The position numbers and the translations under genes are program-made. Positions 1-40,800 of a stretch of 64,000 nt of DNA are shown in pieces. The notes under the pieces were generated by a model. It had not been told where the DNA came from, ran no database searches, and saw only the letters and a list, made by a program, of their open reading frames with translations. Each line of letters starts with the position of its first letter. The stretch's first letter is position 1. This DNA is from Alloascoidea hylecoeti. Its lineage: Eukaryota. The stretch spans positions 620,001-684,000 of the forward strand of contig BCKZ01000008.1 in assembly GCA_001600815.1 (NCBI GenBank). Direction: 5' to 3'.

Positions 1-23
1 TTTTCCTTTCTTTAATAATATAG

Positions 24-17300: not shown

Positions 17301-20270
17301 CTACACTAAGGTGCTTAGTTGCAATAGTAACAACGGATAGATCATTTAACCATATAGGGTATCTTTATGCATATATATAACTTTATAACATTAAAGAGCG
17401 CGGCTTTCTTCCTTGCGTATTTTTATTAATTATAGATGGTTACAATTGGTCATACAACATTGCCATTTATAACTTTATAACCATTACCAAGATTCTTATG
17501 TATAAATTTAAAGGATTTTGATAAACATAGAAGAAAATGCAATCCAAAATGTTTTTAAGTTTGCGTATTAACATCGTTTGCATAATTTGGAATTTGTACA
17601 TTATATGTTGTAATTTTTGTATTAGCTTTGACTATAATTATATTAATCAGAAGTGGCTAACTAGCTGGCTATTTGGTATTGTAAGGTTAGGTTATTAATT
17701 AATATTCATCTCGAATGTAAATACTACTGCTGCAGGGATGGTCCAAATGTTTCAATTGCAACTAATAATTATGGAAGGTAACATTAAGAATTTAAGATAG
17801 AAATATTACAGCTACTACCAGCTAAATATATGAATGCTCCATTCATGTTTGTATTTTGTGATCGTATTTTATATAATTATAATGTTTTTATTATATATGA
17901 TATATAATGCTGGAAAAATTTTAAGTTTGTTGAACTGCATCTTGAGCTTTTCAAAACTAAATTTAAAAGAAATATTTTCTTTCTTAGTAATATTGATACT
18001 TTAATATAACTTATAATTATATGTTGTCATATTTATGTATATTGTATAGACTATAATTTTGATGTAATTACTAATGAAATTGATTTTAAGAATATAAGTT
18101 ACATGATAGATATCGATATCGACTATATGTAGGTCCTTAAGCTCCTCAACTTTAATTTACAGTATTATATTTTATATCTATAGATTAATAGAAGTTTCAA
18201 TCGCAGTACTAATGTTAGCTTACTATGGCTATAGAAACTAACCATATTAATATCAATGTAACAAGACTTATAATAAATAAAATTTGTGATATAATTAATC
18301 GCGACAAAATATTATATCTATCTATACCGGCGCTTAGCGTAAATAACGGATTATAATTAAAATACTTGTATGAAGTTACGTTACCAGTATTTTAAAAACT
18401 TACTATGGCTTGTTAAATGTTTCAATCAGATATCAACAGATTCAACACTCATTTTCAGGCTTATAATATCAATTAACTATAAACTACTCGTTAATGTTAT
18501 AAAATTATTATGCATCATATGCATTTATATCATTTGAAACTACATGATCTACATCTGCAACTGAAAAGATATATCGATCGATAATGATTTTACAGCTAAT
18601 TATATTATTTGAATTCGAATTACAGCTCTGGTTGTAAATATCAAACATTAAGATCCAGATGAGATGCTTTTGTTTAATCCAAGTGGATGAAACATGATGA
18701 GATATAATTCGAAGTGCATTTTTTAGTGGGTGAAAAAAAGCATGGTGAACATTAATGCACCCTAGTTATACATTTACCGGTAACGGTAGTAAATCATAGT
18801 TGAATACACAACGTTAACCATGGCAAGATATAGTCTACAATTAGTGTATGGATCTAGAGTTATCTGGATCGAAATGATAGATCTCATATAAAGTGAGATG
18901 GAGTGCATGTGTGATAAATTGATAATTACTATTAATTAACTATAGCTCACGTTATTGGGTCGGATTGCTGCTTCTTGTGTTTAAATCTATATTACATTTT
19001 TAAATATTGTATACATATCAATATTATATTAACTAGAACTAATACGATTGGAACTTGAAAGCTTATACTACATGTATATAAATTATACTAAAGCTGAAAT
19101 ATTATATTCAATTAAGTAGTAAAGATTGCAATCGATTATATCATACGCCTAGGCGGAGTAGGCGTATTAATAATTTTATTTGTATCTACCCGTATACATT
19201 TCAATCTAAATAGATAATTAATGTATATATTTTATTCTTTACTTTTATAATTTTAAATGCTGAGGATATACGATAAATAAATACACAAGGTAAAACTATT
19301 TTTGGGCCATGAATATGGATCCTAATAATTTTCACATAATACCCTATATTTATTATATAATTGAATCTACATTTATAAATTTAGCTGTAAAGTGTAAACC
19401 AATGGCCACGGTAACTGAAAGGAAGAATATGGTTAGTTGTGTTAAGTTATCTATAACCTTATAAGTTTTGCACCCATAAAAATTTCATAAGAACTTAAAA
19501 CACACACACACACAATTGCTAAGAGAGAGCTCAGCTAGTATTCATATATGGCTGCGAATAAACACATCCGATCCTGATACGGATTTATTAGCAACATATT
19601 AAATACAAAGGCTAATCTTAATTCAATAACTCCTATCTCTAATAACGTAAAAACAACAACATATAACTTCCGTATTATTAATCTTAATCAGAATGTTACG
19701 ATTTTTCTGAGAATCTGAACTTTTTGATTCTAGTTCAACAAAACAACAATCATAAACCAATAAATCACCTAATTGATAAATTAAGGTTAAAAATGAACAC
19801 ATAGAAGGAATAATCAACTATATCGCGAATTAAAATTAAAGAATATAATAGAAGAATAGCGGATTAATTCGACAGCAATTAAATACGATACTGCAATCCT
19901 AGTAGCTTAATTTGTATATATTATACCGGTATATATAGATCTATACCACCAATTATCTATATAAATTTATATATCTATATTATACTGTGATTAGTTGCAA
20001 GTGATTCCAGCTATAATATATATTCACTATGCCGACTATTTGCAACTTGTATCTGGTTTAAAACATAGTTATAGCAAATTACTATATATTCTAAATACCT
20101 GCACATATATATATGCATTAAATGGAGAGCTAAGTAGCAGGAATGTGAAAAATGGCTTTTTGTAAACCTATAGTTGAAGATACTAGATAATAACTTCTAG
20201 AGGTAAATACTAACTATACATTTTAAGTAAAACATCCAAGTTGGCGTTATACAACAAAACTTACAAGTCA

Positions 20271-20908
20271 AACCTCATTATGATCGTCTCAATTGCCCTA
20301 CTGCAAGATTAATTATTTGGAAAGAACAATTTTTTTAATGTTTATTTAAAGGAAATTAATGAACAATGATTCTCATAGCTGAACTTCAAAATAAAATTTT
20401 CAAATGTAGCAATTTCTTACAAGATGCATTTGAGTGAGATGAAGTAAGACATCCTATTTGGCGCTCTGGCTAGTAGAATATAAGGCCTTATATCCAACTT
20501 CATGATGATCATTTAAATTGACCTACCGCAATATTAATATTTTAGAATGGAAATTTTTTTAATGTTGATTTAATATTGATTTAATATTGATTTAATATTA
20601 ATTCTCAATTTCTCATGGCTAAACTGCAAAATGAATTTCCATGTGTATGATGCGTTTTATCATGTAAGATCTAACATATATAACTTATGGTATATCTGCC
20701 ATGAGAGTGTGAAAAATATAGAGAATAGTACTCAAACTTAGTATGGTATAGACAGCATTAGACGCTCTAGATATAAACCTTTATAGTGTGTACGGAAACA
20801 ACACCTTGGCAATGGCACAATAACCTGCAAACTAAAGGTTTTAAACCAATCGTTCATGATCATGAATCAAGATATTAATCTTTTGTAAGATGCATTTGAC
20901 TGAGATGA
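20271..20908. repeat. Degenerate ~225 bp tandem repeat in the gene desert
   Basis: AACCTCATTATGATCGTCTCAATTGCCCTACTGCAAGATTAAT (20271) aligns with AACTTCATGATGATCATTTAAATTGACCTACCGCAATATTAAT (20496). AAGATGCATTTGA.TGAGATGA occurs at ~20422 and ~20887. Confidence 0.7.
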
Positions 20909-22276
20909 GCATGCAGACCCTGACCTTTTCTTAAGTCATCGCATTACTTGGATTCTAGAACTGGAGCTAGATATAGCCTATATAGAATTATAGCATGCGG
21001 TATATATTTTGAAAATTTGAACGGTACTTATGAGGACTGGAAGGTGCTAGAGCCGCTAGACTTTTTACAGATATTATTTCGGTATTGTACTGTTGTGATG
21101 AGAAGTCTGGCCAAGTTACGAGTCTCATATACGTAACTTGTCGAATGTTGTCCTAGAGTTTTCTTTAAATTGAAAATGAATGGCGCTACTTATACAATAA
21201 GTTACGTACCGACCGTGTGGGATCAACCGTGTCTTCTAAAATTTGTGCCTTTTATAGTTTCTGGGCCTTTTGGTTTTGGTATATGGTGTTTGTTATGGAG
21301 CTAGGTATTTTAAAAAGTTAAGTTTTACGGGGTATGAAATTTCGAGATTATTTTATGAACTCACGGTTGGAGCAAAGCTCACACGATACATTTGGTAATT
21401 ATCTGACATACTACGTTAGGCTCGAGAAACTACTGAGCTAGAAAAGGCTCTGATATATAAGTTACATAGAATAGATATTCCATGTAGTGGTATTTCTCTC
21501 GCGATGGATACTCTAGATCTTATAAAACCTTATACTGATTCGTAGAAGGCTTAGGTTATCTACAATGCAGTTATTAATTTCAAGGGTTTTACTGACAGGA
21601 TCCTGTTGTCTAGAGGTATTGGAAATACTCTTCAAACTTTTTATACTTAGTTAATTCTCTTTAAATTTGTCATATATTTAAAGGCACAGACGGGGTCGAT
21701 TCCACCACCAGATGCTCTAGAACTAAAGTAAACTGAATGTATACAACTTACCTGATCATGATGATATGTTGGCGATGTTTTATGAGATGTTACATTTGCA
21801 TATATATTATTTATTTGTTAATATATTATTTATTTTTTAATATTTTATTGATTAGAACATCTTTAAGTTACAGCCATTGGAAAAATATATGCAAAAATAT
21901 CTCTGGTAAGTGTATTAAATAATATATATAATATGGCAATGAAGGAGAAATTATAATTACTGTAGTTCCTTGCAGTTGTTTTTATAATATAATAAAGAGA
22001 AGGATTACGGTCATGAAATACAATGGATCTGCAGCAGCAAAATACAATCCAAAAGAAGAGTCTAGACAGCAGTCTGCGCTGGTTGTCCAGACACCCGACG
22101 AACCCGGAAAGGCGGCATCCCATTCTGCAATGCTGCAGCTGCAATGCTCTATCTGCACACCTGCATGTGGCTTCCCATTACAGTTTCCTACATTATAGTA
22201 TGATGTATAAAACGCAAGCGATTCCCTTCTCTTTCTTTTGATCCATCAATACACTCACATCTCAAATCACTCCACA

Positions 22277-22912
22277 ATGACCAACCACAACCGAACAGCC
22301 GGGTCTCAGCAAAACCTTGTAGATGACGACCCTACCAGAATCACTGTTTGGTACTGTTGTATGTGTGCTCAATATCATGGCGACCCTCCAAATAGATACG
22401 ACTGTTTAAGATGCAAACACATGATGTGCCCGTATTGTTTAAAGCAAAGAGCTGGTGACAAAATATCCGTCAATACCCCTTCTACACATCTACCTTCTCC
22501 ACTGGAACACCAGGATTACGAGTATAGTTATGGGGCAGGCTATTTCGCCTATTATACCGACCACTATCGTGCCCACGATGCTGCTGCTGCTCTAATAGCT
22601 AACTATACAAATACAGCTACAACTACTACGACCTCTAATGATATAAATGGACCTATGCAATACATGTTAACTTCTGGATCATCCTCCCTTTCAGTTAATA
22701 CTGATTCAGGAAGTGAAAATCAATCTTCGATAAGAGATTTTTCTCCCATTCCCTCTCCTTTAAATACGCATAGTCAACTCACTCAGGGAAGTAGAACAAA
22801 TATAAATCCCAGCATCAACAGGTCTAGAAGAAGATCCGAAATACACCACAACCTTGAGAATGAGGAATCAACTAAGGATCCAGCTATATTCTCTGGAATG
22901 ATACAGATATGA
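22277..22912 (+). CDS. Small Cys-rich putative zinc-binding protein with a disordered S/T-rich tail
   Basis: WYCCMC-x11-CLRCKHMMCPYC motif. TATA (TATAAAA) at ~22206; ATG at 22277 in an ACA-ATG context. Confidence 0.75.
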   Translation: MTNHNRTAGSQQNLVDDDPTRITVWYCCMCAQYHGDPPNRYDCLRCKHMMCPYCLKQRAGDKISVNTPSTHLPSPLEHQDYEYSYGAGYFAYYTDHYRAHDAAAALIANYTNTATTTTTSNDINGPMQYMLTSGSSSLSVNTDSGSENQSSIRDFSPIPSPLNTHSQLTQGSRTNINPSINRSRRRSEIHHNLENEESTKDPAIFSGMIQI

Positions 22913-25900
22913 GAAATGGTTTTGAATTTCTATTAATGAACCTTTTTAATACAACTATTGCTATTACTATTATTACTACGAAACAATGCAAAGGCTTAGC
23001 AATATTTCTTAATATCAATAATTAATCTTGAACCACTGCTATCAACTTGTCTATAACAATATTGATCTTTTATTATTATCATTATTATATTACTATCATT
23101 TTTTTACAAATTGTTAATTTATCTTGTGGGGCGCATACAAATAAAAAGAAACTTATGAATATGAGTAATTTTGCAAAATTACCTTAAACTTGTTTAATTT
23201 GACTTTTCACATCTTTTTTTATTATGATGTCTATGGGACTTTTTTTAATTTTTTCTTTTGAATCTTTTATATTTTTATCATCAATTACATCTACAATTTA
23301 TCGGCATGACTGTCTTCCTATAAAATCATTTGCATAGCTGTTTTTCTTTCTTATTTTTTTTTTCTTTCATAATTTTTACCCCTGTTATCTTGAACATCAA
23401 ATTTTCTAAAGTTAAATTACAAACTGTAATTAGTCAATCAATTCCGTTCCAATCTTAAAAAGATATTATTAGAACTACATGTATAGATTTATTTATTTTC
23501 CTTTCATCTCATTTGTTGTTGTTGCCGTTGTTATTGTGTACACCTTGGATTACATAGAGATTTTACTTATAAATATATCTTCCATCATTTTTTTAACTTT
23601 TTTGGAGTACTGTAATCGAAGACTCCACGTGATTGCCACAATTAGGTAAGCGGACTGCTATTACATTTGAATGTGATGCATGTTTTCCTTTTTGGATGTT
23701 TAGGGTTCTGGGCATGTCTAGGCCTAAGACTAGACTTTGGGTGTAAACGAGCGGCATCCCGATCGGTTCAAAATTAAATAATTGTGCACATTGCACAAGC
23801 AATGCTTTTAGGGGTCATGTGATCTATTTGAGTAAGTAATAGCTAAGTATTCTATCTATACCTGGTGTTCTTTCTGAATGTCATAATATTCAACAACATT
23901 TTAAATATAACTATTCAGATTCAAATTTTATGTTTTTCATATATTGTAAGGATATTTTTAGCCTAGCTTGCAATTTTACTTTTCTCTCCTTCTATTTTCA
24001 AAAAATGCAAGTGAACGAATCTGTCAAGCATAACTGTGGAGAATATTAAAATATATTTCAATATAACTTATTGTTAATCGCATAATATTAACATTACATT
24101 CACACATAGAAAAATATTGATATTATGAAAAACATATGTAGTCGTAATAAAATTGGCTCAAATTTGCAATTCTATTATTTTTATTCAAATTTACATAATT
24201 ATCGATATCTGTCAGTGAAATATGTTTTAATTTGTATTGTTTCGTTTGACATATTAAACTGGTTGAACTTAAGGTATTTCTAACTTACCTACGTTATATA
24301 CACGTGCACGCCCTAGGCATTGATAACATTTCCCCCCTCTTAATTACATTAATTATTAATTATTAATATATAGGCCTATATGTGAAAACTTTTCAAATAT
24401 ATGGTGATTCTTTTTCTCGGGCCAATACAAATATATTAATATTATTATGTATGGGTGTCCCTTTGCATATATTCAGAATTATACTATCCTAAAAAATTTA
24501 AAAAGAATTGTCATTAATATATATACTCTTCTAAAGTTGACATTATAAAGTAGTATTAATGTTGATCAAATGCTGGAATATATTCATTTTACACTACAAT
24601 TATATAGTTTATTAATATCATTCGTTAATAGCCTTAAGCTTGTATAGCTAGATATATAACTAGCTAGACAATATTTGTAAAAGATTGATAATTTCAACTA
24701 GCACAAAAAAATGGTAACTTGGAAGGTTCTAGCTGGATCAATGCCATACTGTGACCGAATGAGCTTAAGTTCAACAAAGCCTAGACTGTATAACAATTGT
24801 TGCGCCTGAGCTTCAAATGTTTTTGCTTTAAAGGATGCTCGTTGCCAGAAATGACTTTTTCACGGACATTATTGGTGGATATACGCCTAGCTAGAATATG
24901 GCCGGTTTAAACTTAAATTTAATTTGAAACGCAAGACAGATACCGATGTCTCTCTGCCAAACACCAAAACGCCTAGTCTTTGATAAAATCCCTCCTTATA
25001 ATTAATCTACAACCTGTCTCGGTTATCGTTGCAATTATATTTTACAATCCCAAAAGGAACTGCAACTGGTTAATTAATTATAATGCTTGCAATTGTTGTT
25101 CCATTACTGGTACTAAACATATATATAAACCCACAGACTTAAATGGATATATAATTGCATACCTGATATTTTCAATTGGTGATTGTTTCGAATTCTTTGT
25201 ATACTGGTATATTTTTCCAAGCTAAAATTACTCTAGACAACTATCCAATATCAATTCTGTATATATTATGGAAAAGATATTTTGAAATAATAACTCATAT
25301 CTTAATATATCCGAGATCTCAATCGTATAACATACATAACATACCCATATATATGTCCCTACTTACATTGCTATACCTATAGGCCTATAACAATTTCAAA
25401 TATCAATCGTGCACGTACCCGAAGCTATAGACACAGTATATTATATAAGTTACTGTGGCTGATTATCTTTGCAATTCCAATATGCTACAAATATACACTA
25501 ATCTAGCTAATTGGGGAGTGTTAAACTTGGGTATGGGCATCATATGGCACTCTTGTCTCTTGGGCAGTCGACAATTGCTTGCAAGAGGTCGTGCGACTTT
25601 TTGGCATAACTGGTTTCAATGGGCACTTTATTATTAATAAATTAAATAATATCAGAAGCGAAATGGTACGATCCTTAATTTATCTTCCCATTTTATCACC
25701 TCCGCGTCAACTCGGCCACGGAAAAATTATTAATATAGTTTTGGCTAAATTTGTACGTGTAAATAGAACAATCTCCGATTGAAAATGTGAGGTTATATAT
25801 ATCGGTATGATTACACAACTTGCAATTGATATAACTATCAATATTAGTAATGGATTTATAATTAGATACAGAAATATGAAATGTGTCTGAGTCAGGCACA

Positions 25901-26543
25901 TAACTGACATTTAGAAAAATATGCACCTATGCCATATATTCGTATATATGTCCGTAATACGTATACTTGTAAGTTAAGAGCAGTAGTAACATTGAAAGCA
26001 GATTATCTGTCAAACTAGCCATCGTACGTGTCTATTAAAATCAATTCTTGTAATTGCCTGTAATGTTCTAGATATGCTTTAAATTTTGCCATTGAAATTA
26101 GAATTGTTCAAATACAGTACCGTTTCAAAACGATGCGATGCGATATATAAGCTTATATAATATTTTAATTTCTATAGGTAAAGGATCCAAAACGATCTTA
26201 AGTATAAATTTATTGAAAATTTGAAATTGCTTTATTACTTAATGTTCATGAATACTGTGATGAATAGATCTAGAGAGTTGTGACTCAATTTGAGACCTTA
26301 AAGATTGTTTCATTAATGAGAGATGAAATGTTTATAGAAAAAGAATCGATCCTATAGCTATAGGTTGCAATTTCAGAGATTTAATAGAACGAGCTTCCTC
26401 ACGAAGAGGAACAGTTTTTTTATATACCTATACCTGATCCGGTTAATATTGCTTTACATAGTAATAATGTGGTTGGACAGACTGCACAGACGTGCCGCGG
26501 TCACGTGAGCGACTAACAACCCGTGAAAAAAAGTAAAAATAGA

Positions 26544-26628
26544 TCTCCTGGGGGTGAATCGAACACCCGATCTCAAGATAAACTTTTCCATTACAGTCTC
26601 GCGCCTTAGCCAACTGGGCCACCAGGAG
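26544..26628 (-). tRNA. tRNA-Tyr(GUA) with an 11-nt intron (26590-26580)
   Basis: CTCCTGGTGGCCCAGTTGGCTAAGGCGCGAGACTGTAA[tggaaaagttt]ATCTTGAGATCGGGTGTTCGATTCACCCCCAGGAGA forms a full cloverleaf and closely resembles yeast tRNA-Tyr. Confidence 0.96.
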
Positions 26629-26964
26629 TCACTTGTCTGGGAGAAATTTTATTGTTCAATTAGTATTTTCAAGTATCTCTTTCGTTTGTGTGTCGGATAG
26701 AAAGTTAAAGTTAAGATTCAGAGTATAATAAAGAACTCTGTTTATAAATAGCTTTCACTGATTTCTTATATTTAATCTTCAATTCAGACTAAGTTCTTGT
26801 TTAGTTTTCTTGGTTATAAGCTTATTAACCTAATTATGAAATCAGTGATCTGTTGTAAGTTAACAACATATAAAATAGGTATTTGGTTCAACCTCTTACT
26901 TTTTCTCATTTTTTACCCAAATATATTGATATAACCTCTTTTGTGATCAAAGTTTTTAGTATAA

Positions 26965-29330
26965 ATGAATAATTTCAATCCTTTTGAATCGACTTTAAAT
27001 CATCCTCATCCAAAATTTGGAAATGATAGCTATTCTAAGCTGTATTCTAATGGATCATCAAATTTAACGGATCAACCCCATCTAACGGCGTTAAAGACAT
27101 CTAACGCAAATTCTCTACTTATCGGAAACGGAAAGGAAAACATTCAATCAACATCTTTACTTTCTCCGAATGATAATAATAATAATAATAATAATAATGG
27201 ATTCTTTCTACCTTTCAAATTTTCTACTCCCTGTGATTTTAACACTAGTACAAACACAAATCTAAAGCTTGATAATTTCCATAATTGGCCCTATAACTAT
27301 AAGTTGAAGCAAAATAAGATGCCCCTTTTCACTAATGCTGATTTAAATTTGCCGTCCCCGTTTGTTCCCTCGTTAGGATCTCTTCTTTCAAATTCAACAC
27401 CTACATTTTTAACCAATGATCTTGACAATATCCACCCAGATCCTCAAAACGGTCTTGTGTCTTCTATTCCCCAATCAGACAACTTTACATCAAGAGTTAT
27501 AAAACTTACAAATTTTCCTTTAAAATTTGATCCTATTGTTCTTCATAATATTTGTTCTAATATTGGAGATGTTGAATCTTTAGAAAGACACAAAAAGAAT
27601 AATATGGGACAAGCAATTATAAGCTGGTACGATATAAGGGATAGTGCTAAATGCCATTCAAATATCGGTTTATTATTTCAAGATGTCCCTGGAATTGTAG
27701 GTGAATATGTTGGTACAAATAATGATAATGTACCATTGTTATGTGATGCGACTTTATCCAAAATTGAAATTCATTTTAAAAGAGAATTTACATCCAAACT
27801 TTTTCCTGATATTAAAGTACTTATTTCAAAATTGTCGGAGTTTGGTGATATCCAAAACTTGTCTTTTAAAAGTAGCTCTAAAAAATCATATGTTTGCGAT
27901 TTTTTTGATACCAGGTCCAGTGCAGCGGCGATTAAATACTTGAATGGATCTATTATTGATGTGAGTAAATGGTAATTCATATTTAACAGCTATTATTCAA
28001 TAATAAATACCCTTCAACTGATTTTTTGCTAACTTGAATAGAACTTGGTTGCCGAAGTATATCCTTTTGGGAAAAGAAAATTAGATTCCACAACTTCATT
28101 TCCTACTCCAGAAAATACATTTAGCCCGGAAGTTGCTTACCCTGTTCCATCATATAAAGGAGTATCTTACGATTCAGCGAAGTATTCTAGAAGTAGTACT
28201 GACACCGATTTGAGATTAATGGGATTCTCTAAAATTAATGATGCCAAGCTTGAAACTTCCAAGTCCATGACTGGTGTTGCTACGTTGGCACATCTTCCAA
28301 AAAGGAATACCGTTGATCTCACTAGAATATCCAAAGGATTGGATACACGAACTACCATGATGATTAGAAATATACCCAATAAAGTTGGTCAAGATGTCCT
28401 ACAAAAATATATTGATGTTACCAATAAAGGAACCTATGATTTTTTATGTATGAAATGAAATGAATTGAGCTACTAATTGATCCAGTATAATACCTAAATC
28501 GTTTATTCTAATATTTCTCCTTTTTTATTTTTAGATTTGAGAATTGATTTTGCTAACCGCTGCAAGTATGCCTTTCCTTCGACCCCCAATTTGTTCCAGG
28601 GGATGATTGCAAATTTTAACTTTCATATCATTTAATTAAATTTAGTGTTGGTTATGCATTTATCTCTTTCATTGTACCAGAACACATTATTACGTTTGTC
28701 AAAGCTCGAGTTGGCACCAAATGGTAAACAATACCCTTTTCTTCAAATACATTTTCTTACTTTAAAGTTACTAATTAATAACAAAAATATTATTAACAAC
28801 AGGCGAAATTTTAATTCTGATAAGATTTGTGATATCTCATACGCTAATATATAAGTATTCAAACAACTTATTTTACAAATTTTACCTCTATCTAACTTTC
28901 ATATCATTTACTCAAGGCAAAGAGTCACTAATAGAAAAGTTTAGAAACTCTAGTATTATGGAGCAAGGCAAGTTTATATTATGTACTCTCGGTCAAATTA
29001 GCATTGGCTTTTACTAACTAATTCCCACACAGATAAGAGTTATAGACCTAAGGTATTTTACAGTGATGGGCCCATGAAGGGGCAAGAGCAGGAATTCCCG
29101 AAGCCCAATAATATTGGTAGGAAAAACCGCTCAATTGCGACAATAAAAGAGCTTGGTAAGGAAATAAAATTTTGCATTTTTCTTCTTTTATATCGTTTAC
29201 TAGTAACTAATATTTATATGTAGGTTTATTTGCTCCGGAGCGCGACAAAAAGAATGAGTCCAATTGCAGCAATACAACTAATAATCTTACAATAGCTAGA
29301 TGGATGGAGGAAGATTCCAAATTTAAATGA
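26965..29330 (+). CDS. mei2: Mei2-like RNA-binding protein (RRM1, RRM2, Mei2-type RRM3); exons 26965-27960, 28042-28447, 28535-28565, 28646-28723, 28803-28850, 28912-28967, 29033-29155, 29224-29330
   Basis: Spliced RRM3 reads GLDTRTTMMIRNIPNK...GTYDFLYLRIDFANRCNVGYAFISF...VGTKWRNFNSDKICDISYANIQGKESLIEKFRNSSIMEQDKSYRPKVFYSDGP...GLFAP, the Mei2 family signature. Confidence 0.9.
28851..28911 (+). other. U2-type AT-AC intron (mei2 intron 5, 61 nt)
   Basis: ATAAGT...TCTAAC...CATTTAC. This is the only junction that restores YANIQGK; the nearby GT (28855) lies after an in-frame TAA. Confidence 0.85.
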
Positions 29331-29830
29331 ACTAATATACCAATAGACAAAAAGTTAGAAAAACTCTGTTTACCCATTATTATATTTTTGAGTTGATAAA
29401 TTAAGATGAGAAACTCTTAGCAGGACATTTTATTTAATAATTGTATAACCCAACTAAAAGTAAATATTTTATAATAAATAACCTTATAGAATCCGGAGGT
29501 TCCTTGAACCAGCAGATCTAGAAAAATTAAGAAAATACACCTCCAAAACATATGCGATGCGTAAAACTTACTTTCTTTTAACGACAACTCATCAGAGTCA
29601 TCACCATACCAAGAGCGAACCTTAATTTACAGGGTTTAAATTTGTTTGTTTATTTTTGAATTCTTGGAAATTTTTGAAAATGTCTTGATCTTGATTTTTG
29701 ATTTTCCAAAGGACCTCCACAGATATGCGGGATCTACAAAATAGGCTACTACATCCAGACATCTTTATCCTATCAAAAACCGCAATTGTGAATCTTTCAT
29801 TATAATTGCCCCAATATATGCAACCTGAAA

Positions 29831-31699
29831 ATGTTAGATTTTAGTTCGGATAATGGGAGGAAGCAACGTTTATTAAAAAAAGAAAACGGGGATCGAAGGA
29901 GTAGATTGAATGTTTTGGTTTGGGGTGATGATCATTTTAGCCCTAATCCACCGTTTTGGGAACAAACAGTTACAAATCTTAAGCGACTGTTATCGCCATA
30001 TTATGTTGTAGCCATAATTGATACTAAAACAATTAAAGAGGAACCATGGATGGAAACAACAGCAATGTTAGTTTTGGTTGGTGATCATGATTCTATACAC
30101 GGAAAGACAGCTTTGACAATTGCAGATAAGATTCAATTATACGTTACGAGAGGAGGTAAATTCTTAGGAATTGGAGCAGGCAGTTATTTTGGCAGTGAAT
30201 TGATAAGAGGAGCAAATTATGAACATGGTTGCTCCGATTATAAATTGAAGTTTCCTCTTGGCCAGAGTAGTATTTTTAAAGAAAACGATTATCGCAAATT
30301 AGGAGAAGGAGAAATCGTTTTAAGTAATTTTCATCCAGAATTTACTCCAAATTCTCAATCTTTAAATCAGACTACCAACCAACAATCTAGCAATAAACCA
30401 GGAAATGAAGATGATAAACTATTACAATTAATATTTAAACAAATGTTGGAAACCCTTCATTTGGAGGTAAATAATACTGATGATTCAAAAATTCCAAAAC
30501 TTACCCACTTACAGATGTCTTCAAATAATGCCAATATTCTAAAAAAATTGATTAATAAATTAGAGGGGAGTGTTGGTTTCACTGGTACTAACAATGATAT
30601 CTTGGTGGGAACAACTAATAAGTTTAAACTTTATAATGTCGACATCAATGAAGGGGCTTCTGAAATATATGAAGGGCAAGAAAAAGACGGCTCTGATACA
30701 ACATTAGGACTAGAAATTTATTCATCGGGAATTCCAAGTCAAACTCGAACACCCTATTTCAATCATGGAGAATATTTTGAAAATTTAAAGAAATATCGTG
30801 AAAGGTTTCAATTTAATGGATCGTGGGGGGATATTCTGATTTATGGTGAAGTCATATCGTCAACCTCTACCATTCTTGAGAAGAATACCAATGTTCTTTC
30901 AAACCTACCGGATGGAGTTGTTTGTAGTGCAACAATTCAATGTGGTGGTCGAGGTAGAGGTGGTAATGTTTGGGTTTCCCCACAAGGTTTGCTTCCAAAT
31001 ACAGGAGTTATAAGAATGAAGCCTTCAGAAATCAAAACGGCGCCTCTGGTATTTATTCAATATCTTGGTTCTTTAGCTATGGTAGAGGCTATTAGAAATT
31101 ATGGGGAAGGATATGAGGATATCCCTATAAGATTGAAATGGCCAAACGATATATACGCTCTTAACCCCGATTTTATCAAATCAAACAATTTAGATGAGAC
31201 AAATGCAGCTAAATATTTGAAAATCGGAGGCTATCTTGTAGGAGCTAACTATCTTGACAATGAGTATATTATTACACACGGTATGGGTATAAATGTTGAT
31301 AATGAAGCCCCTACAACATCTTTAAATCAGATTTTAACAGCATTGAATAAGATCCGCTCTCGAAATGGAAAACAAATTTTAGAGCGTTTCACACTTGAAG
31401 GATTATTATCCGCCTACTTAACAATGGCTGAGAAGATAATGTCTAAGTTTAGAGTTGAGGGGTTCAAACCTTTTGAATCTTTGTATTATTCTCGATGGCT
31501 ACACAGTGGACAGATTGTGCATCTAGAAGATTTTGAACACACAAGAGCTAAGGTATTAGGAATTACTTCTAATGGTATGCTTTTGGTAGAAGAATTAGAA
31601 GAATTCAATGACAATGGTAGAGCTATTGTATATGAATTACAGCCTGATGGGAATTCATTTGATATGTTTAAAGGGCTTATCAAGAAAAAAATAACATAG
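29831..31699 (+). CDS. BPL1: Biotin-protein ligase (holocarboxylase synthetase)
   Basis: QCGGRGRGGNVWVSPQG, LKWPNDIY, KIGG, YELQPDGNSFDMFKGLI, plus an N-terminal BPL_N-like region. Confidence 0.93.
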   Translation: MLDFSSDNGRKQRLLKKENGDRRSRLNVLVWGDDHFSPNPPFWEQTVTNLKRLLSPYYVVAIIDTKTIKEEPWMETTAMLVLVGDHDSIHGKTALTIADKIQLYVTRGGKFLGIGAGSYFGSELIRGANYEHGCSDYKLKFPLGQSSIFKENDYRKLGEGEIVLSNFHPEFTPNSQSLNQTTNQQSSNKPGNEDDKLLQLIFKQMLETLHLEVNNTDDSKIPKLTHLQMSSNNANILKKLINKLEGSVGFTGTNNDILVGTTNKFKLYNVDINEGASEIYEGQEKDGSDTTLGLEIYSSGIPSQTRTPYFNHGEYFENLKKYRERFQFNGSWGDILIYGEVISSTSTILEKNTNVLSNLPDGVVCSATIQCGGRGRGGNVWVSPQGLLPNTGVIRMKPSEIKTAPLVFIQYLGSLAMVEAIRNYGEGYEDIPIRLKWPNDIYALNPDFIKSNNLDETNAAKYLKIGGYLVGANYLDNEYIITHGMGINVDNEAPTTSLNQILTALNKIRSRNGKQILERFTLEGLLSAYLTMAEKIMSKFRVEGFKPFESLYYSRWLHSGQIVHLEDFEHTRAKVLGITSNGMLLVEELEEFNDNGRAIVYELQPDGNSFDMFKGLIKKKIT

Positions 31700-32619
31700 A
31701 TTTACTCTCACATTTTATCAAACAGAGAAAATAGAGACTATTACCTCAATATTTGACCTGAAAATAAACCAATATGCTAATCTTTACATATTCGCACAAA
31801 CATAAATTAATCATAAAAGTTGAGCTACACATTATATTAATTAACACATTAATATTCCCTGTTCTACTTTAACTCCATGTTCTTAGCCCCTGTTTCAGCT
31901 TGACCCCTGTTTTACCTTTTCAGGGCCTTCTAATAAATAAAAGTCCATATAACATGTATATGTAATCTCACACATCATCATGATCAGCAACTTAGCAAGT
32001 ATACCGGTACCATGTATGTGCCAATCTCTGTCGTTTTTCCTAGATTTACGTACGCGGTACAGTACAGTCGACTCTCAACAACGCGACTTACACAATTGCA
32101 ACATGTGCTCTAACATGGGTTATAATCATATAAGCAATAAAACTTGAAGTAGTTAAATTGGTTTTTTTAATATCTGCTAACAAATTCAGTACTTTTGATC
32201 ATATTTTTCATTTGAATTTGGAAGTTCAGCTTAATGGTGATAAAGGAACATTATAATTAAGTTTATATGTGGTTTGAAAATTCAAAGCGTTTCCCAAAAT
32301 AGAAGTCTATAGACAAATTTACCTGCAAATCAATAACATATGCATTAAAAAGTATACCTTTTTAGAAAATAGAGTTTTGCTCGTCAGGTTTCAAATTGGT
32401 ATAATGTTTGTGAAAGGATATAATCATTAAAAGACATGAATGGTTATAACCTCAAGGGGAATATTTAATATCGATTCCTAGTATCTTCTTAAACAACTCA
32501 CATCTTGTTTTTTTCAATTTTTCATATATTAGATTATATATTGAAAAGGCTATAGCTATATTGCTAACCATTCTTATTCTTATTCTTATCACATCATATT
32601 ATGCTAAGGAATTATAGTC

Positions 32620-35600
32620 ATGTTTAAATCAGAATCTATCAAAATGAGAAGCAATAAATCATCATATACAGGTGAGCTAACCCGAACTGGTTCAACTGCT
32701 AAAGTTATATCTGCTTTCAAGAAAATCTCAATCACCGGGAGCAAAAACAGTAGAGATGAGAAAATTCAATATCGATTACCTGGTGAAAGACCCAAACCAA
32801 AGCCAGCACCAATTACCAATTCAAGCTTGATATTAAATTCCATTACAATGAATTCTAAAACTACATTATCTTCTATAGTTCCAAATATGAAATCAAATGA
32901 ACCAAAAAGGATTATATTGCCATATAATAGTCATGATAGTTTTGGTGATAGTGATATTACTTTAGATTCATATGATCTAGCTTTACCAAAAATGAAAAAA
33001 AAGTTTATGTCTAAACCAATCCCAAGTTTCCCCGAACCAAAACGAAGTAATTCATTCAGCGCTTTTTCTGAGCAGTCACTGGATGGATTTCTTGATGATG
33101 ATTTAGATGATTTTTATTCAAATAATGAACCAGATCATCTGCCAGAACTAATTAATAGAAATAATACCAATAAAAGATTTAATGGACAAAAATGTTGTTT
33201 TTGCGAGGAGGAATTTGAAATTATAAGCTCAGAAAGATTAATTGAACTGACATGTGAACATATCTGTCATGAGATTTGTATAATGGAGTTTTTACTGTTT
33301 GAATTGGATGGGAAAAATGGTGATCAAAGCATATTCAATATTAATACAAAAGAATTTTTTTCTATTGAACCATTTTTACCCCAATGTCCTACTTGTAATG
33401 AAAAGGCATTACCATTTGATCAAGATACTTTTGCTAGCCTACTACGCAACTTTATTGAAACTCTAAAAATCAAGGACTCAGGTTTGAATTCGGATGTAGA
33501 TGAATCTGAGCAAAAAGAGCAAACAGATTTAGAAGAAGCGGAACTATTTATAAAACCGAAAGAAAATTTTGAACATCAGGAATTTCTAGTTACAACACCA
33601 AGAGATAACGAAGATATTGAGTTTAAATTAAAGGACAAAGGGATTGATAGAAACAGTGAATCAAACGAAGAAGAATTCAGCTCAACACTCTATACAGTAG
33701 TTGAATATGAAAGAAGCTCAGGTCTCTCTGACTCACATACCCCCACATCCTTAGCCCGCAGATTTACCTTGTCCGAATATTTAAATAAGACTCCATTACC
33801 ATCCTCACCTTTGCCAACTCTTTTATTTCCTCGAGGATCTAGATCTAATAAGAAAGTTCATTGGGATAAGTCTCCGAATAAAGACATGAATCAAGTTTCA
33901 TCACCTTCATACCAATGTTTATCACCTCCATCAATTAGAATAAATCCTAGAGTGTCATCTTTTCGGCTTTCCACAGAAACTCCAAATAAAAGGAACATTT
34001 CTTATCTTCTTGAAATTAAATCACCTCAAGAATTTTCAGGTGGAACGCCCGGTTTACAATGTTCAGACGGACTACTAGGTCAAGGTGCAGATGTTGTGAT
34101 TATTTTACCGTATCATGGATTAAGCGCCAACAAATTTAAAAGTATAAGAAAGGCATTGTTTTTAGTTTTATCAAAATTAGGTCTAAATGATAAATTGGGA
34201 TTGATTTTCCATGGCGAAGATAAGGTTGTAAAGTTTCATAAAAGAGACTGGAACCGATGGGAAGAAGTCATTAATAGTTTTCAACCCAAAACAGAAAAAG
34301 AAGAGCCTTCATATGAAACCCGTTCTAAGAAGGAATTGTTTTATATGACAAAGAAAGGTAAGTCATTATTGAAGTTTGAAAATAACCGTTTTAAAGAACT
34401 AACTCATACTTATTTAATAGCGTATAAACTTTTCAAATCAATTCCCAACGACGATAGAAATCCAATACAATCATTATTTATAATATATGATTATAATATA
34501 GATAAAACTACATCTTTCGAATTACAACAAATTAATTCTAAATTCTTATCATCAAAAACAAATTTAAATATTTCTACACATTTCTTTGGAATTGGAATAA
34601 AACATTTACCTGATTTATTATTTTCATCAGCATCAAAATCATTATCGACTTATTATTATTATATTAATAATTGGGATATATTAAAAGATAAATTTTCAGA
34701 AAAATTAATTTATGAAAAATTTACACATCATGATTTAAAAATTAAAATTATTTCGACAAATAATACTACTAAAATTTCTAAAGTTTTAAATAAAAATAAT
34801 ATAATTAATAAATCTTGTGAAGAAGAACAAATAGTTGATTTAAAAGATCAAATGATAACAATTGGTAATTTGAAAGCTGGTGATGAAAAAAAATTCATTC
34901 TTGAATTCAATGTATATCAAGATAAATTGTTTGAACTATTAGATCTTACTGGTACTACTGCTAATGATATAAGTAATGTAGATACCGAAATTATGCTATT
35001 TGAATTAGAAATTTCATATTCTGAATTTACTAAATCAATTTCATTAAATGGAATATCAAAAGATAAAGAATTAATGGAATTATCACAATTAATATCTTCA
35101 GAACATATAAATCCTGTTCCGGAAATCTATACAGAAATGATACCTGGACCTTTTATTTCTTTACAAGTTCCAAAAGCTAAAAATTTGGACTTAAAATCTA
35201 CGGATTTACCTATATGGGATAATCATAATATAAAACAATTACTTTTGGATCATAGGTTCTTAAAATATTATGATTCTAACTATAGCGTTTCCAATAATAA
35301 CTCAAATAACTATGCAATAGTGTTTGATTTCACATTGGGAGGATTAATTGAAATATATTCCGAGTATAAAATGTCATATGGAAATAATGAAAACAAACAA
35401 TTACATCAAGATATCTCGACTAAGGTTATAGCAATAACCGATTATAACACAGATTCATTTGTTAACATTATCAAGTCAATAGATTCACCTATGTTGCTAA
35501 CCAAGATTAAATTTGTTATCATAGCCGCTCTGAATGTTTTAGTTGGATTATTGAGAAGAGAAAATTATGGGCATGCAGCACAAAAAGCACATAGTACAGC

Positions 35601-35811
35601 AAATTTGATTTATGGGGTATTAAAATGTGTTGATGTTGATAACGATAAAACAAATGAAAATGAAGGCATTGGGTTTCTAAAAATAATGGCTAAACAGTGT
35701 GAATATTTAGCGCAAGTTATAAGAAATAAAGATCGGGACGATCCTAAATCGATGATGTTGATGAGAGAAGGACTCATTAGGTGGACAATGGAGAGGATAA
35801 TAAATGTGTAG
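32620..35811 (+). CDS. Far1/Ste5-family RING-H2 + vWA scaffold-like protein
   Basis: RING-H2 CCFCEE...ERLIELTCEHICHEICI...CPTC and vWA start ADVVIILP...KFKSIRKALFLVLSKLGLNDKLGLIFHG. Far1 versus Ste5 cannot be resolved. Confidence 0.7.
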   Translation: MFKSESIKMRSNKSSYTGELTRTGSTAKVISAFKKISITGSKNSRDEKIQYRLPGERPKPKPAPITNSSLILNSITMNSKTTLSSIVPNMKSNEPKRIILPYNSHDSFGDSDITLDSYDLALPKMKKKFMSKPIPSFPEPKRSNSFSAFSEQSLDGFLDDDLDDFYSNNEPDHLPELINRNNTNKRFNGQKCCFCEEEFEIISSERLIELTCEHICHEICIMEFLLFELDGKNGDQSIFNINTKEFFSIEPFLPQCPTCNEKALPFDQDTFASLLRNFIETLKIKDSGLNSDVDESEQKEQTDLEEAELFIKPKENFEHQEFLVTTPRDNEDIEFKLKDKGIDRNSESNEEEFSSTLYTVVEYERSSGLSDSHTPTSLARRFTLSEYLNKTPLPSSPLPTLLFPRGSRSNKKVHWDKSPNKDMNQVSSPSYQCLSPPSIRINPRVSSFRLSTETPNKRNISYLLEIKSPQEFSGGTPGLQCSDGLLGQGADVVIILPYHGLSANKFKSIRKALFLVLSKLGLNDKLGLIFHGEDKVVKFHKRDWNRWEEVINSFQPKTEKEEPSYETRSKKELFYMTKKGKSLLKFENNRFKELTHTYLIAYKLFKSIPNDDRNPIQSLFIIYDYNIDKTTSFELQQINSKFLSSKTNLNISTHFFGIGIKHLPDLLFSSASKSLSTYYYYINNWDILKDKFSEKLIYEKFTHHDLKIKIISTNNTTKISKVLNKNNIINKSCEEEQIVDLKDQMITIGNLKAGDEKKFILEFNVYQDKLFELLDLTGTTANDISNVDTEIMLFELEISYSEFTKSISLNGISKDKELMELSQLISSEHINPVPEIYTEMIPGPFISLQVPKAKNLDLKSTDLPIWDNHNIKQLLLDHRFLKYYDSNYSVSNNNSNNYAIVFDFTLGGLIEIYSEYKMSYGNNENKQLHQDISTKVIAITDYNTDSFVNIIKSIDSPMLLTKIKFVIIAALNVLVGLLRRENYGHAAQKAHSTANLIYGVLKCVDVDNDKTNENEGIGFLKIMAKQCEYLAQVIRNKDRDDPKSMMLMREGLIRWTMERIINV

Positions 35812-36298
35812 AATTATTACCCGTTGTTGGGTGACGCATGCGTCCATATTTTATATAAATTAAAATAAAATTTGCGGGATATTGTTTTAAATCTGAGGGT
35901 AAAAAGTTTTGTTGGATATCCGTTCTAGCTAGTGTTAATTATAGTCTAAAGTATAAAAATCGTGAAAGTAAGAGATCGCGATCAATGTTATATGTGTGTG
36001 TTTTCGTTTCTTGCTGGTTGGTGCATTTGAAGCTGGTGTTACAATGCAACATTTTGGAACTCCGAGAATTAAGGCCGAAATTCCGGGCATGCATGGTTTA
36101 TAACTACTGTGTATATGTTGCATATTCTATATTTTATTTACGCGACATTGTAGATAATTGGTTATTAATTAACTATCTACTTATTGTAACATATTAATAT
36201 CTGTAAAATCTATATCGTCTTCTATTTGTATACTGGAAGATTAAAAGAAGTACAAGTCAAGTCAAATGAAATTTAAGGAACCTCAAATGAGAAATGGT

Positions 36299-37595
36299 TT
36301 ACTCTAGATCATCTTCAATCATTTCAGGTAATTTAATCATATCAGCACCATTATAAACAATTTGATAGGTAGCTTCAAATAAAGGAAATTCTTTTAATAA
36401 CTTTTTATTCTCTAATAAATCATGAACTTCTTTTGCTGTAATGATACCTTGAGCACTTTGCCCATTAAGTAATTCAATTTCTAATTGTCTTGCAGTTTTA
36501 CCAGTTTTGGCCATTTCTCTACCAATTTTAACATTTCTACCACCATAAGATGTTGTGATTAAATCAGCAACACCACATGATTCTTCAGTAAAAGTTTTTT
36601 GTTGAGATTCTGGGAAAAATAAGAAACTAAATTTAACAGTTTCGACAAGACCTCTTCTCATGATTGCAGATTTTGCATTATCACCCCAACCAAGACCTTC
36701 AACAAATCCAGCTGCTAAAGCAACAACGTTTTTCAAAGCACCTGCTACTGAAACACCAGAAACATCTTCAATAACTCTGACATGGAAGTATTTTCTGTGA
36801 AATAATGCTCTCAATACAGAGTGGTTAACGTCACCATCAAAGTAGTCTGCTGGTAAACGATAAGCGATCGTAGTTTCCGAGTATTTCTCACGAGCAACCT
36901 CTGGCGCCAAATTTGCACCAGATAAGGCACCACAAGTAATTCCTAAATGTGTATGGATATAATCTGATAGTAAATGAACACCATCTTTTTCAACCTCAAG
37001 ACCTTTCAAACAAGAAATAGCTCTTGCCTTTAAAGGAACATTACCCTTCAATTGCTTAACAATATTTGGTAAAAATTGATGAGGAATATTAAAAATGATG
37101 ATATCGGCATCCTTAACGGTATTAACAATACTAGGATCGGCAATCAAATTTCTTGGTAATTTGACTTCAGGTAAATATTTAACATTTTCATGTTCGGTAT
37201 TGATAATGTGGGTTAAAGGTTTTCCATTAATTTTTTCCTCAAAAACCCACATGCGGACCTCTTCTTCAAACAAGTTTGGTTGCTCGAAAGTGTTCTCTGA
37301 AACGACTTTAGCTATCGTTGTGCCCCTGTTGAAAAATATGATTAGTACCGGACCCAACAATTTGCAGCAGGCTTTGACAGATTTGGCAGATTTGCAGATT
37401 TTCAGGGTGCAGATTGCGGTTATAATTAATTAGTGTAACTTACCAGTTTCCCGAGCCAATAACGCACACTCTGAACGGTTTTGAACGGGCAGCCGAGGTT
37501 TTGTTGAGGGCGACCGAGGACAGAGATCTTTGTGTAGAGCCAATGCCCATGTTGAGCAGTCTGTTCTTGGCGGTTTGCAGTGCGGACGAAGACAT
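36299..37595 (-). CDS. GPD1: NAD-dependent glycerol-3-phosphate dehydrogenase; exons 37595-37444, 37325-36299
   Basis: KPFRVCVIGSGNW/GTTIAKVV, LSGANLAPEVA, GALKNVVA. GTAAGT...TACTAAT...CAG intron at 37443-37326. Confidence 0.95.
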
Positions 37596-37867
37596 TCTGT
37601 GACAGCTGACTGACAGTTTTGGTTTCGAGATGACAGGAAAAGACAAAATGAGAAATTTCCTCGACTTAACGTTTTATAAAGTTTTGCAGCCAACAAATAT
37701 GCATATGCATGCACGACCCCGGAAGAAGCAGGGCGCATAAGTGCTGAGGTTGCTGTGTTGTTTGGGTAACCTCCGTGCACCCCTCTTGCTTTTTTTCTTC
37801 CAGTCGACAAAACACAAAAAAGTTGTTTTATTATTATTTTATTGTTTGTTCTGTTTTGGGATGAAAA

Positions 37868-40800
37868 ATGAGTTTCGGAATCAAACCCTCACCACACCCA
37901 CACACCCAGCACGTGCAAGGGTCGGCCCACGTCCACCTCCCCTCCGACGTAGATCAGCTCCAGGTGCTCGTGCTCAGATATAAAGAGCTCGTCGCTGCAA
38001 AAAGTTTGGTGCCAAAGGTCCCTCATGGAATTCAGGTCCCATTTGGCGATACTCCTCTGGACCAGGAGCTCATTTCAATCAAACGTGTTTTGGATAATCT
38101 CGTCTCAGCCCAGAAATTATACGAATCGAAGAGAGACAAAATCTGCAAAATAAAAGAGTCTAGGAAATTGAAATTGAAGCTGAAATCTACCGCGAATCTG
38201 AACTCAGACAAAAATGGAGTTGAACTACTGGGATCTCAACTTTACGCGTTTGCTCTTTTGAGTCATGATATGGATGTTCCAGATGAGACTCTTCAATTCA
38301 TTCAGAAATCTACCATTGACGCTAACTCTCCTACCTTGAATGCCACACTTAGTGATATTTGTGTCCCGTTCACTACGAATTTTGATGGTCGTGTTGAAAT
38401 GGCTGGTCTACCAAATGAAACGAAATTAAAATCAAAATCAAAACCAACTTCTCAAAATTCCAAAGATTCTATAAATAGCTTTGAAATTGCTACTGCTACA
38501 GGCGAGCAACTAATTTCTTTGAAAGTCAATAATCGTATAACATTACTAGAAAAAATCCCATCAAATATTACTACTTTTGATGTGTCTCAAATCGATTTTA
38601 ATCCTCCTGATGAATCCCATAAGTTTGAAGACATTTTAAAAACAAGAGCGCTAACAGAATTAAAATCTCTTCGATTATTAGCAAAACAAAAATTAATACG
38701 TCAATCTTTAATTTTTGGAATAGCTTCAAAACCAAATTTAGAAATCGGTAGTATTATAAATAGATCTTTAAATCAAAGATCTAAATTACATACACCACAA
38801 GTAGCAAGACTTACTGAACAATTAGAATTACAACAAACTTTAGAAAGAGAAAGGAAAGAATCAGCTATTCATAGAAAACAAATTCGTGTAATAACTAATC
38901 ATTCTGCAAATGTTCGTGAAAACTCTCAGTTAATTCGAAATAAAATTGCAAATTTAAGTAAAACTGCCATACAATATCATATTCAAATTGAAAAAGAAGA
39001 ACAAAGAAAATTAGAAAAGACTGCAAAACAGAGATTACAGGCTTTAAAAGCAAATGATGAAGAAGCATATATTAAATTATTAGATCAAACAAAAGATACA
39101 AGATTAACTCATCTATTAAAACAAACAAATGCATTTTTGGATTCTTTAGCACAGGCTGTTAAAGTTCAACAAGCAGAAGTTAGAGATGAAGATAATTTTA
39201 GAGAAGGTTCCTTATTAACTGAATCACATCATGGTGGTGAAGATGATGATGAAGAAAAAGAAAAAATTGATTATTATAAAGTGGCTCATCGTGTTCATGA
39301 GGAAATTAAAGTTCAACCATCAATTCTTGTTGGTGGTACATTAAAAGAATATCAAATAAAAGGTTTAGAATGGATGGTTTCATTGTATAACAATCATTTA
39401 AATGGGATTTTAGCTGATGAAATGGGTCTAGGTAAAACAATTCAATCAATATCATTAATATCTTATTTAATTGAAACTAAAAGACAAAGAGGTCCATATT
39501 TAGTTATTGTACCATTAAGTACTTTAACAAATTGGACTTTGGAATTTGAAAAATGGGCTCCAAGTATTAAAAAAATTGTTTATAAAGGTGCTCCAGCAAT
39601 ACGAAAATCATTTCAAAATGCAATTAGACAAGGTGATTTTCAAGTTTTATTAACAACTTATGAATATATTATAAAGGATAGACCAATTTTATCAAAATTA
39701 AAATGGATTCATATGATTATTGATGAAGGTCATCGAATGAAAAATGCTCAATCAAAATTATCTGCAACTTTAACAAATTATTATCATTCACAATATAGAT
39801 TAATTTTAACTGGTACTCCTTTACAAAATAATTTACCTGAATTATGGGCATTATTAAATTTTGTATTACCAAAAATTTTTAATTCCGTTAAAACCTTTGA
39901 TGATTGGTTTAATACACCATTTGCAAATACAGGAAGTCAAGAGAAATTAGAATTAACTGAAGAAGAAACATTACTTATCATTAGACGTTTACATAAAGTT
40001 TTAAGACCATTTTTATTACGTCGTTTGAAAAAGGATGTTGAAAAAGATTTACCTGATAAAGTTGAAAAAGTTGTTAAATGTAAATTATCCGCTTTACAAT
40101 CAAAATTATATGAACAAATGTTAAAACATAATGCAGTTTTTGTTGGTGATGGTGTAGCTGGTACATCAAGAGGTATTAAAGGTCTTAATAATAAAGTAAT
40201 GCAATTGAGAAAAATTTGTAACCATCCATTTGTTTTTGAAGAAGTTGAAAATGCTATAATGCATAATAATCCTTATGCAACTGATGAATTATGGAGAGTT
40301 TCTGGTAAATTTGAATTATTAGATCGAGTCTTACCAAAATTTAGAGCAACAAATCATCGGGTTTTAATGTTTTTCCAGATGACTCAAATTATGGATATAA
40401 TGGAAGATTATCTTAACTTAAGAGGTATGAAATTTTTAAGATTAGATGGTGGTACAAAATCAGATGATAGATCCGCTTTGTTAAAAGAATTCAATGCTCC
40501 AAATTCAGAATATTTCTGTTTCTTATTAAGTACAAGAGCTGGTGGTCTTGGTCTTAATTTACAAACTGCTGATACTGTTATCATTTATGATACCGATTGG
40601 AATCCTCATCAAGATTTACAAGCACAAGATCGTGCCCATAGAATTGGTCAAAAAAATGAAGTTAGAATTTTAAGATTAATCACTGAAGACTCAGTTGAAG
40701 AAGTTATTTTAGAAAGAGCACATAAAAAATTAGATATTGATGGGAAGGTTATTCAAGCAGGTAAATTCGACAATAAATCAACTGCTGAAGAACAAGAAGC

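Follow-up and report, generated by a model that had tools for sequence, protein, structure and literature searches.

The window analysed here, a stretch of 64,000 nt, carries on its forward strand a mei2 gene of eight exons at positions 26965-29330, whose joined exons comprise 1845 nt and encode 614 amino acids with one terminal stop. Judging from its sequence, this is an intact member of the Mei2 family of RNA-binding meiosis regulators. The C-terminal RRM of the family (Pfam RRM_2, PF04059) is matched by exon 2 (profile positions 1-33, E 5.3e-10) and by exon 4 (profile positions 45-69, E 5e-6), and a canonical RRM lies upstream at the end of exon 1 (RRM_1, residues 290-331, E 8.3e-5, 22.8 bits versus a cutoff of 20.7); the two domains by which the family is recognised are thus both present. 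Pfam gave no match to a first RRM at E 0.01, and the N-terminal half of the product is poorly conserved. S. pombe Mei2 (P0023) and fungal Mei2-like proteins have in common with the window protein both the upstream RRM and a C-terminal RRM3 that aligns gap-free (YDFLYLRIDF...NVGYAFI.F...ISYANIQGK...KFRNS...YRPK). The parts of the gene are as follows, with a slash marking a splice junction.

26965..27960, + strand: exon 1, 996 nt (332 codons); the ATG directly follows an in-frame stop; encodes the N-terminal region and most of an RRM
27961..28041, + strand: intron 1, 81 nt, GTGAGT...AG, phase 0; branch-like TGCTAAC 9 nt from the 3' end; same position in the related locus L001, with donor GTAAGT
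28007..28014, + strand: Mer1-type motif ATACCCTT in intron 1, from intron position +47; fits AYACCCUY
28042..28447, + strand: exon 2, 406 nt; ends ...TYDFL plus 1 nt; start of RRM3
28448..28534, + strand: intron 2, 87 nt, GTATGA...AG, phase 1; position common to L001
28535..28565, + strand: exon 3, 31 nt, encodes (Y)LRIDFANRC; the L001 counterpart is also 31 nt
28566..28645, + strand: intron 3, 80 nt, GTATGC...AG, phase 2; same position (TGC AA/GT) in L001 and in locus L003
28646..28723, + strand: exon 4, 78 nt, encodes NVGYAFISF...GTK(W); Pfam RRM_2
28724..28802, + strand: intron 4, 79 nt, GTAAAC...AG, phase 2; position TG/G also in L001 (donor GTACGT) and L003 (donor GTGAGT)
28731..28738, + strand: Mer1-type motif ATACCCTT in intron 4, from intron position +8, just 3' of the GTAAAC donor
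28803..28850, + strand: exon 5, 48 nt, encodes (W)RNFNSDKICDISYAN(I)
28851..28911, + strand: intron 5, 61 nt, AT-AC, AT/ATAAGTAT...TCTAAC...CATTTAC/T, phase 2
28912..28967, + strand: exon 6, 56 nt, encodes (I)QGKESLIEKFRNSSIMEQ
28968..29032, + strand: intron 6, 65 nt, GC-AG, AAG/GCAAGT...TACTAAC...CAG, phase 1; same position in L001, as GT-AG (GTAAGT)
29033..29155, + strand: exon 7, 123 nt, encodes DKSYRPKVFYSDGP...IKEL
29156..29223, + strand: intron 7, 68 nt, GTAAGG...AG, phase 1; L001 has no intron here
29224..29330, + strand: exon 8, 107 nt including the TGA stop at 29328-29330

Joined in this way, the product aligns over all junctions with zero gaps to Lipomycetaceae proteins, S. pombe Mei2 and a plant Mei2-like protein, and for each intron no other GT-AG or GC-AG pair within 30 nt on either side keeps both frame and length. 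A first-pass annotation of this DNA had listed seven donors (GTGAGT, GTATGA, GTATGC, GTAAAC, ATAAGT, GCAAGT at 28968 and GTAAGG), and all of them recur in the eight-exon model. The small 3' exons of 31-123 nt that it described correspond to internal exons 3-7 (31, 78, 48, 56 and 123 nt), and its claim that retention of intron 1 yields a tail ending in DVSKW and a stop holds, with read-through giving ...IIDVSKW and then the stop. The same fate would await the other retained introns: whichever of the seven is kept, translation stops within 1-23 codons, before or inside RRM3.

The AT-AC pairing of intron 5 was not part of that annotation. Its ATAAGT donor pairs with an AC acceptor (...TTTAC/T), and reading exon 5 through past the donor gives ATA TAA. 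The sole GT-AG alternative that keeps the frame (28829-28916) costs nine conserved residues. Only AT/ATAAGT...CATTTAC/T (28851-28911) restores the near-universal ISYANIQGK, and therefore intron 5 is read as an AT-AC intron. The donor ATAAGTAT keeps seven of the eight intronic positions that pair with U1, and its branch site is TCTAAC, which lies 16 nt before the 3' end and contains the same CTAAC as neighbouring GT-AG introns. The donor consensus of U2-type AT-AC introns is quoted in PMC5029451 (citing Sheth et al. 2006) as /ATAAGT, and the donors of intron 5 in the window and in L001 are identical to it. We predict that intron 5 is a U2-type AT-AC intron. Such termini are scarce, at 0.019% of annotated fungal introns in Table 1 of PMC7072748, a frequency from which the chance of finding one in a gene of seven introns computes to about 0.13%.

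Intron 6 is the GC-AG intron that the first-pass annotation had claimed (AAG/GCAAGT...CAG), and it does keep the frame; no other GT-AG or GC-AG choice leaves the length unchanged. Its donor has AAG before the GC and a perfect AAGT after it, 8 of its 11 positions agree with the ideal, and its acceptor is AG. GC-AG introns make up 1.009% of annotated fungal introns (PMC7072748, Table 1), from which the chance of one in a seven-intron gene is about 7%. In its flanking bases, AAG before and AAGT after the GC, intron 6 is typical of fungal GC-AG introns, and the orthologous intron of L001 is GT-AG. The best U1-pairing matches among the seven introns belong to the two that lack GT, introns 5 and 6 (8 of 11 positions each); the strong donor context of these two is the usual compensation.

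How far these features extend beyond the window can be judged from 80 metagenome loci with Mei2 relatives, one of which, L001 (GC 40%), is yeast-like. L001 has introns at window positions 1-6, its exons 3-6 are identical in size to those of the window gene (31, 78, 48 and 56 nt), and its donors are, in order, GTAAGT, GTATGT, GTGAGT, GTACGT, ATAAGT and GTAAGT. The off-consensus donors are not conserved in L001, the AT-AC pair excepted. At position 5 this locus reads AT/ATAAGTAT...GCTAAC...CTTAC/T, with GCTAAC about 11 nt from the end, and among the 80 loci it is the only one with the ATAAGTAT donor context there. The RRM3 of L001 is 67-68% identical to that of the window, both have closer matches among Lipomyces or Trichomonascus proteins than in each other, and the two loci have no neighbouring gene in common. 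Given that the AT-AC pair has been kept despite this low identity, it has survived a deep split. The window RRM3 is itself 65-73% identical to proteins of Lipomycetaceae, Trichomonascus and Blastobotrys, and no named yeast protein exceeds 64% identity to the window malic enzyme. From these protein comparisons the host appears to be a deep-branching budding yeast (Saccharomycotina) that has no close relative among named yeasts.

Intron positions 3 (TGC AA/GT) and 4 (TG/GT) are identical in a Pezizomycotina-like locus, L003. Since these two positions are exactly common to L003, the presence of the introns needs no regulatory explanation. Deposited proteins tell of a further position: 13 of the 24 homologous proteins found first, those of Trichomonascus ciferrii and Blastobotrys adeninivorans among them, have YDFLC... 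followed by divergent sequence, as would be expected from read-through of a T/GT junction at the position of intron 2. Several mei2 intron positions thus appear, on sequence comparison, to be ancient and common to other Ascomycota. A separate observation concerns the vicinity of intron 5: ten Pezizomycotina-like loci were inspected here, and in nine of them a GT-AG intron (GCN A/GTRAGT) lies 4 nt upstream of where the AT-AC intron sits.

The same junction is irregular in several deposited yeast proteins. The Mei2 protein of Lipomyces arxii lacks equivalents of exons 5 and 6, that of Limtongia smithiae lacks the equivalent of exon 5, and YANIYGK replaces YANIQGK in 2 of 95 motif-matching proteins (L. 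tetrasporus and Trichomonascus vanleenenianus). These oddities, seen in protein sequences only and not in DNA, fit a non-canonical intron that annotation pipelines cannot model.

Whether the mei2 donors are weak depends on how strength is scored. As the first-pass annotation had stated, none of them is GTATGT or GTAAGT, the commonest donors nearby. Exact matches to either hexamer number 0/7 in mei2 versus 7/9 in neighbouring introns anchored by homology (Fisher one-sided p=0.0031), and versus 9/13 once introns supported by motif only are added (p=0.0043), in a neighbour set that is small, curated by hand and partly by eye, and thus biased toward consensus donors. The nine anchored introns come from genes for Mif2/CENP-C (three), an actin-related protein (two), an LSm protein (two), glycerol-3-phosphate dehydrogenase (one) and an old-yellow-enzyme type reductase (one), and four further introns with motif support only bring the set to 13. 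Hand curation was used instead of ab initio intron scans of the window, which were too noisy for a census. The broader statement that the mei2 donors are mostly weak stands only in part. The deficit of exact consensus is real, but complementarity to U1 is equal to that of the neighbours, with a mean match to CAG/GTAAGTAT over 11 positions of 7.0 in mei2 versus 7.15 (Mann-Whitney p=0.35), and six of the seven donors are one position off a consensus hexamer. The most deviant donor, and the only plainly poor one, is GTAAAC of intron 4, with A at +5.

In its layout, mei2 is an outlier in the window. Its seven introns (61-87 nt each, 521 nt in total) fall at 54, 76, 78, 82, 84, 88 and 94% of the coding sequence, six of them in its last quarter. 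Neighbouring genes have 0-3 introns each, all in 5' UTRs or near gene 5' ends, and the long open reading frames of the window (600-1300 codons) are intron-free. The S. pombe mei2 gene is not known to contain introns, unlike the window gene with its seven. The crowding of introns into the 3' part of mei2 is the opposite of the pattern that cDNA-mediated intron loss leaves behind.

Several explanations for the odd ends and donors can be weighed against these observations. One is that they are mutational damage in a decaying gene that no longer makes protein. Two of seven introns lack GT, one donor has A at +5, and many budding yeasts have no Mei2 match in our homologue lists, which were not counted systematically. 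We nevertheless regard decay as very unlikely and reject it: the spliced reading frame is intact over eight exons and 614 codons, RRM3 still has its conserved residues, the GC donor has no other flaw (AAG/GCAAGT), and the two ends of intron 5 have changed together to A...C, with the same pair kept in L001 at 67-68% protein identity. Errors of sequencing or assembly could also have produced apparent AT-AC and GC-AG ends, for which substitutions of one base each (G to A, G to C, T to C) would be enough. This is extremely improbable, since the AT...AC pair recurs in L001, an independent metagenome contig, and requires two coordinated changes 61 nt apart; on these two grounds it too is rejected. 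Scarcely more credible is the reading of intron 5 as a U12-type intron removed by the minor spliceosome, to which its AT-AC termini and a branch-like site near the 3' end might point. Its donor ATAAGTAT has neither the /ATATCCTT nor the GTATCCTT box and equals the U2-type /ATAAGT of PMC5029451, where yeast is also described as having no minor spliceosome, and its CTAAC branch site is that of neighbouring GT-AG introns. With no U12 donor box and an ordinary branch site, we reject this assignment.

A more serious contender, if still a rather unlikely one, is regulated splicing, a concrete form of the multi-step lock that the first-pass annotation had proposed. At least one mei2 intron would be poorly spliced during growth and would need an activator induced by meiosis or starvation, such that full-length Mei2 with RRM3 would appear only on sexual differentiation. 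The candidate activator would be a KH protein resembling Mer1, which would bind ATACCCTT and bring in the U1 snRNP. In S. cerevisiae the Mer1 enhancer has the consensus AYACCCUY (PMC3082912); in the targets of Mer1 it occurs alongside 5' splice sites that depart from the consensus, within 25 nt of the site in three targets, and homologous KH domains of Debaryomyces and Pichia, which lie outside the Saccharomyces family, have been aligned (both PMC3082912). Intronic AYACCCUY is present in mei2 introns 1 and 4, at +47 and, directly after GTAAAC, at +8. The copy in intron 4 is thus close to its donor, and that in intron 1 lies between donor and branch site, as described for SPO22 in PMC3082912. 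Two of the six AYACCCTY matches in the window fall within the 521 nt of mei2 intron, where about 0.022-0.024 would be expected (Poisson P ~2.4-2.9e-4), though the motif was sought post hoc, after the sequence had been inspected. The absence of exact-consensus donors and the early stop that follows each retained intron also speak for a lock. Against it, the introns 1-6 of L001, read by eye, contain no AYACCCTY, so that conservation of the motif does not extend to this relative, and the weak-donor pattern is not conserved there either. The U1 complementarity of the mei2 donors is not below that of neighbours, and the other four motif matches lie outside any recognised intron, including the ACACCCTC match at 47120 on the minus strand, around which no intron is recognisable.

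The comparison with the Mer1/Nam8 regulon of AMA1, MER2, MER3 and SPO22 is nonetheless suggestive, given that a meiosis-related gene, non-consensus 5' splice sites and a nearby AYACCCUY are all seen in mei2. However, Mei2 is not a known target of that regulon and is not among the four named genes, and the motif is absent from the L001 introns. In its most specific form, enhancer-dependent splicing of the Mer1/Nam8 type would gate full-length Mei2, with a meiosis-induced KH protein at ATACCCTT in introns 1 and 4 rescuing poor 5' splice sites, a regulon older than the Saccharomyces family, and the AT-AC intron adding a slow second catalytic step; we consider this a long shot.

A purpose-built lock is a less likely reading than an ancestral layout. 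Taken together, gene structure, splice-site sequence and conservation suggest to us, with a probability of roughly 0.55, that an ancestral, intron-dense Mei2 gene has been kept as a rarely expressed gene, that the major spliceosome removes all seven of its introns, and that its donors have been drifting. The old intron-rich layout would never have been erased, there having been no cDNA-mediated intron loss. If mei2 is seldom transcribed in growing cells, selection on splicing efficiency would be weak, and the off-consensus donors may have drifted within the tolerance of the major spliceosome. Intron 5 would stay workable through its paired A...C ends in place of G...G, and the conserved C-terminal RRM3 would be encoded only once seven short introns, five GT-AG, one GC-AG and one AT-AC, had been removed. 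In three metatranscriptome runs of a related study, only three tiny, unrelated pieces fell on positions 18000-37999 and cover on mei2 was zero; a search of the window against Rfam returned tRNA only. Three observations count against drift of an ancestral gene: the exact-consensus deficit (0/7 against 7/9 or 9/13) is unlikely by chance, mei2 has two Mer1-type motifs in 521 nt of intron against an expectation of about 0.02, and seven introns where neighbours have 0-3 could mean selection for keeping them.

Removal of intron 5 by the major spliceosome would have precedents. Like the U2-type (type II) AT-AC introns of animals and plants described in PMC5029451, it has AT and AC ends and an /ATAAGT donor and lacks U12 boxes. 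Unlike them, it lies in a budding-yeast lineage, is predicted to be essential for the frame, and is kept in two distant yeasts. For S. cerevisiae, PMC5029451 cites an engineered AT-AC intron (Parker and Siliciano 1993), which indicated that the yeast major spliceosome accepts A and C for the first and last G. Together with the nested AT-AC intron of RPL30 (PMC5029451), it makes the removal that we propose for intron 5 a known capacity of that machinery. However, the engineered intron is artificial, and the RPL30 event is, according to PMC5029451, a side product of 1-2% with an atypical donor, whereas removal of intron 5 would be the sole productive route to protein. According to PMC5029451 (2016), reports of an endogenous AT-AC intron in yeast were lacking until its own minor RPL30 case. 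Our literature search, at the level of paper listings and cited passages, found no published description of the present intron. The solid new finding, as predicted from sequence, is that a budding-yeast Mei2 gene contains, next to a GC-AG intron, a U2-type AT-AC intron that is deeply conserved and essential for the frame.

There are consequences for annotation. Among the deposited Mei2 proteins of yeasts, several end at the position of intron 2, omit what corresponds to exon 5 or have an unusual residue at the junction, which suggests that pipelines that assume GT-AG introns mis-build mei2. If splicing of this gene is regulated, a master regulator of meiosis would be controlled at the level of splicing, and if Mer1-type gating were true, the regulon would be older than the Saccharomyces family and would act on the master switch of meiosis. 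From the perspective of spliceosome function, a conserved, frame-essential U2-type AT-AC intron would be the natural budding-yeast counterpart of the engineered first-base/last-base pair, and mei2 intron 5 would offer a simple system for the tolerance of the major spliceosome toward A...C ends.

Four deposited yeast Mei2 proteins (P0008, P0020, P0014 and P0145) have anomalies at the junctions around intron 5 of mei2, the AT-AC intron at ISYANI|QGK. The Limtongia smithiae protein skips the equivalent of exon 5, that of Lipomyces arxii skips the equivalents of exons 5 and 6, and those of L. tetrasporus and Trichomonascus vanleenenianus read YANIYGK in place of YANIQGK. These anomalous proteins are probably mis-built gene models at a non-canonical intron.

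Departures from the consensus donors (GTATGT or GTAAGT) are not confined to mei2, given that the neighboring LSm and actin-related genes also have some. The features of the window considered here are as follows.

12793 (-), off-consensus donor GTACGC, LSm gene
12039 (-), off-consensus donor GTAGGT, actin-related gene
1668-2033 (+), three introns close together in the Mif2/CENP-C gene, all with GTATGT donors
1959-1980 (+), 22-nt Mif2/CENP-C micro-exon enclosed by GTATGT introns
35712-35944 (+), candidate second GC-AG intron, GCAAGT...AG, 233 nt
26544-26628 (-), tRNA-Ser, anticodon CGA

The third Mif2/CENP-C intron lacks an obvious CTAAC-type branch site. The candidate GC-AG intron, a possible second example of its kind, would link a 1067-codon ORF (32608-35808) with a 112-codon ORF (35859-36194).

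Between the tRNA-Ser gene and the start codon of mei2, which is encoded downstream on the other strand, there are 336 nt. Farther upstream, a region of about 7 kb (14400-21850; GC about 27-32%) has no ORF of at least 90 codons on either strand, and contains only a pair of short AT-rich tandem arrays, at the right end.

Pezizomycotina-like Mei2 loci in metagenomes (L003, L018, L027, L038, L039, L058, L065, L073 and L075) carry an intron with GT-AG ends that sits 4 nt upstream of where the yeasts have the AT-AC intron, in the junction context GCN A|GTRAGT ... AG|NN ATY CAR GG. This GT-AG intron could be either the yeast AT-AC intron after a 4-nt shift in position or one of separate origin.
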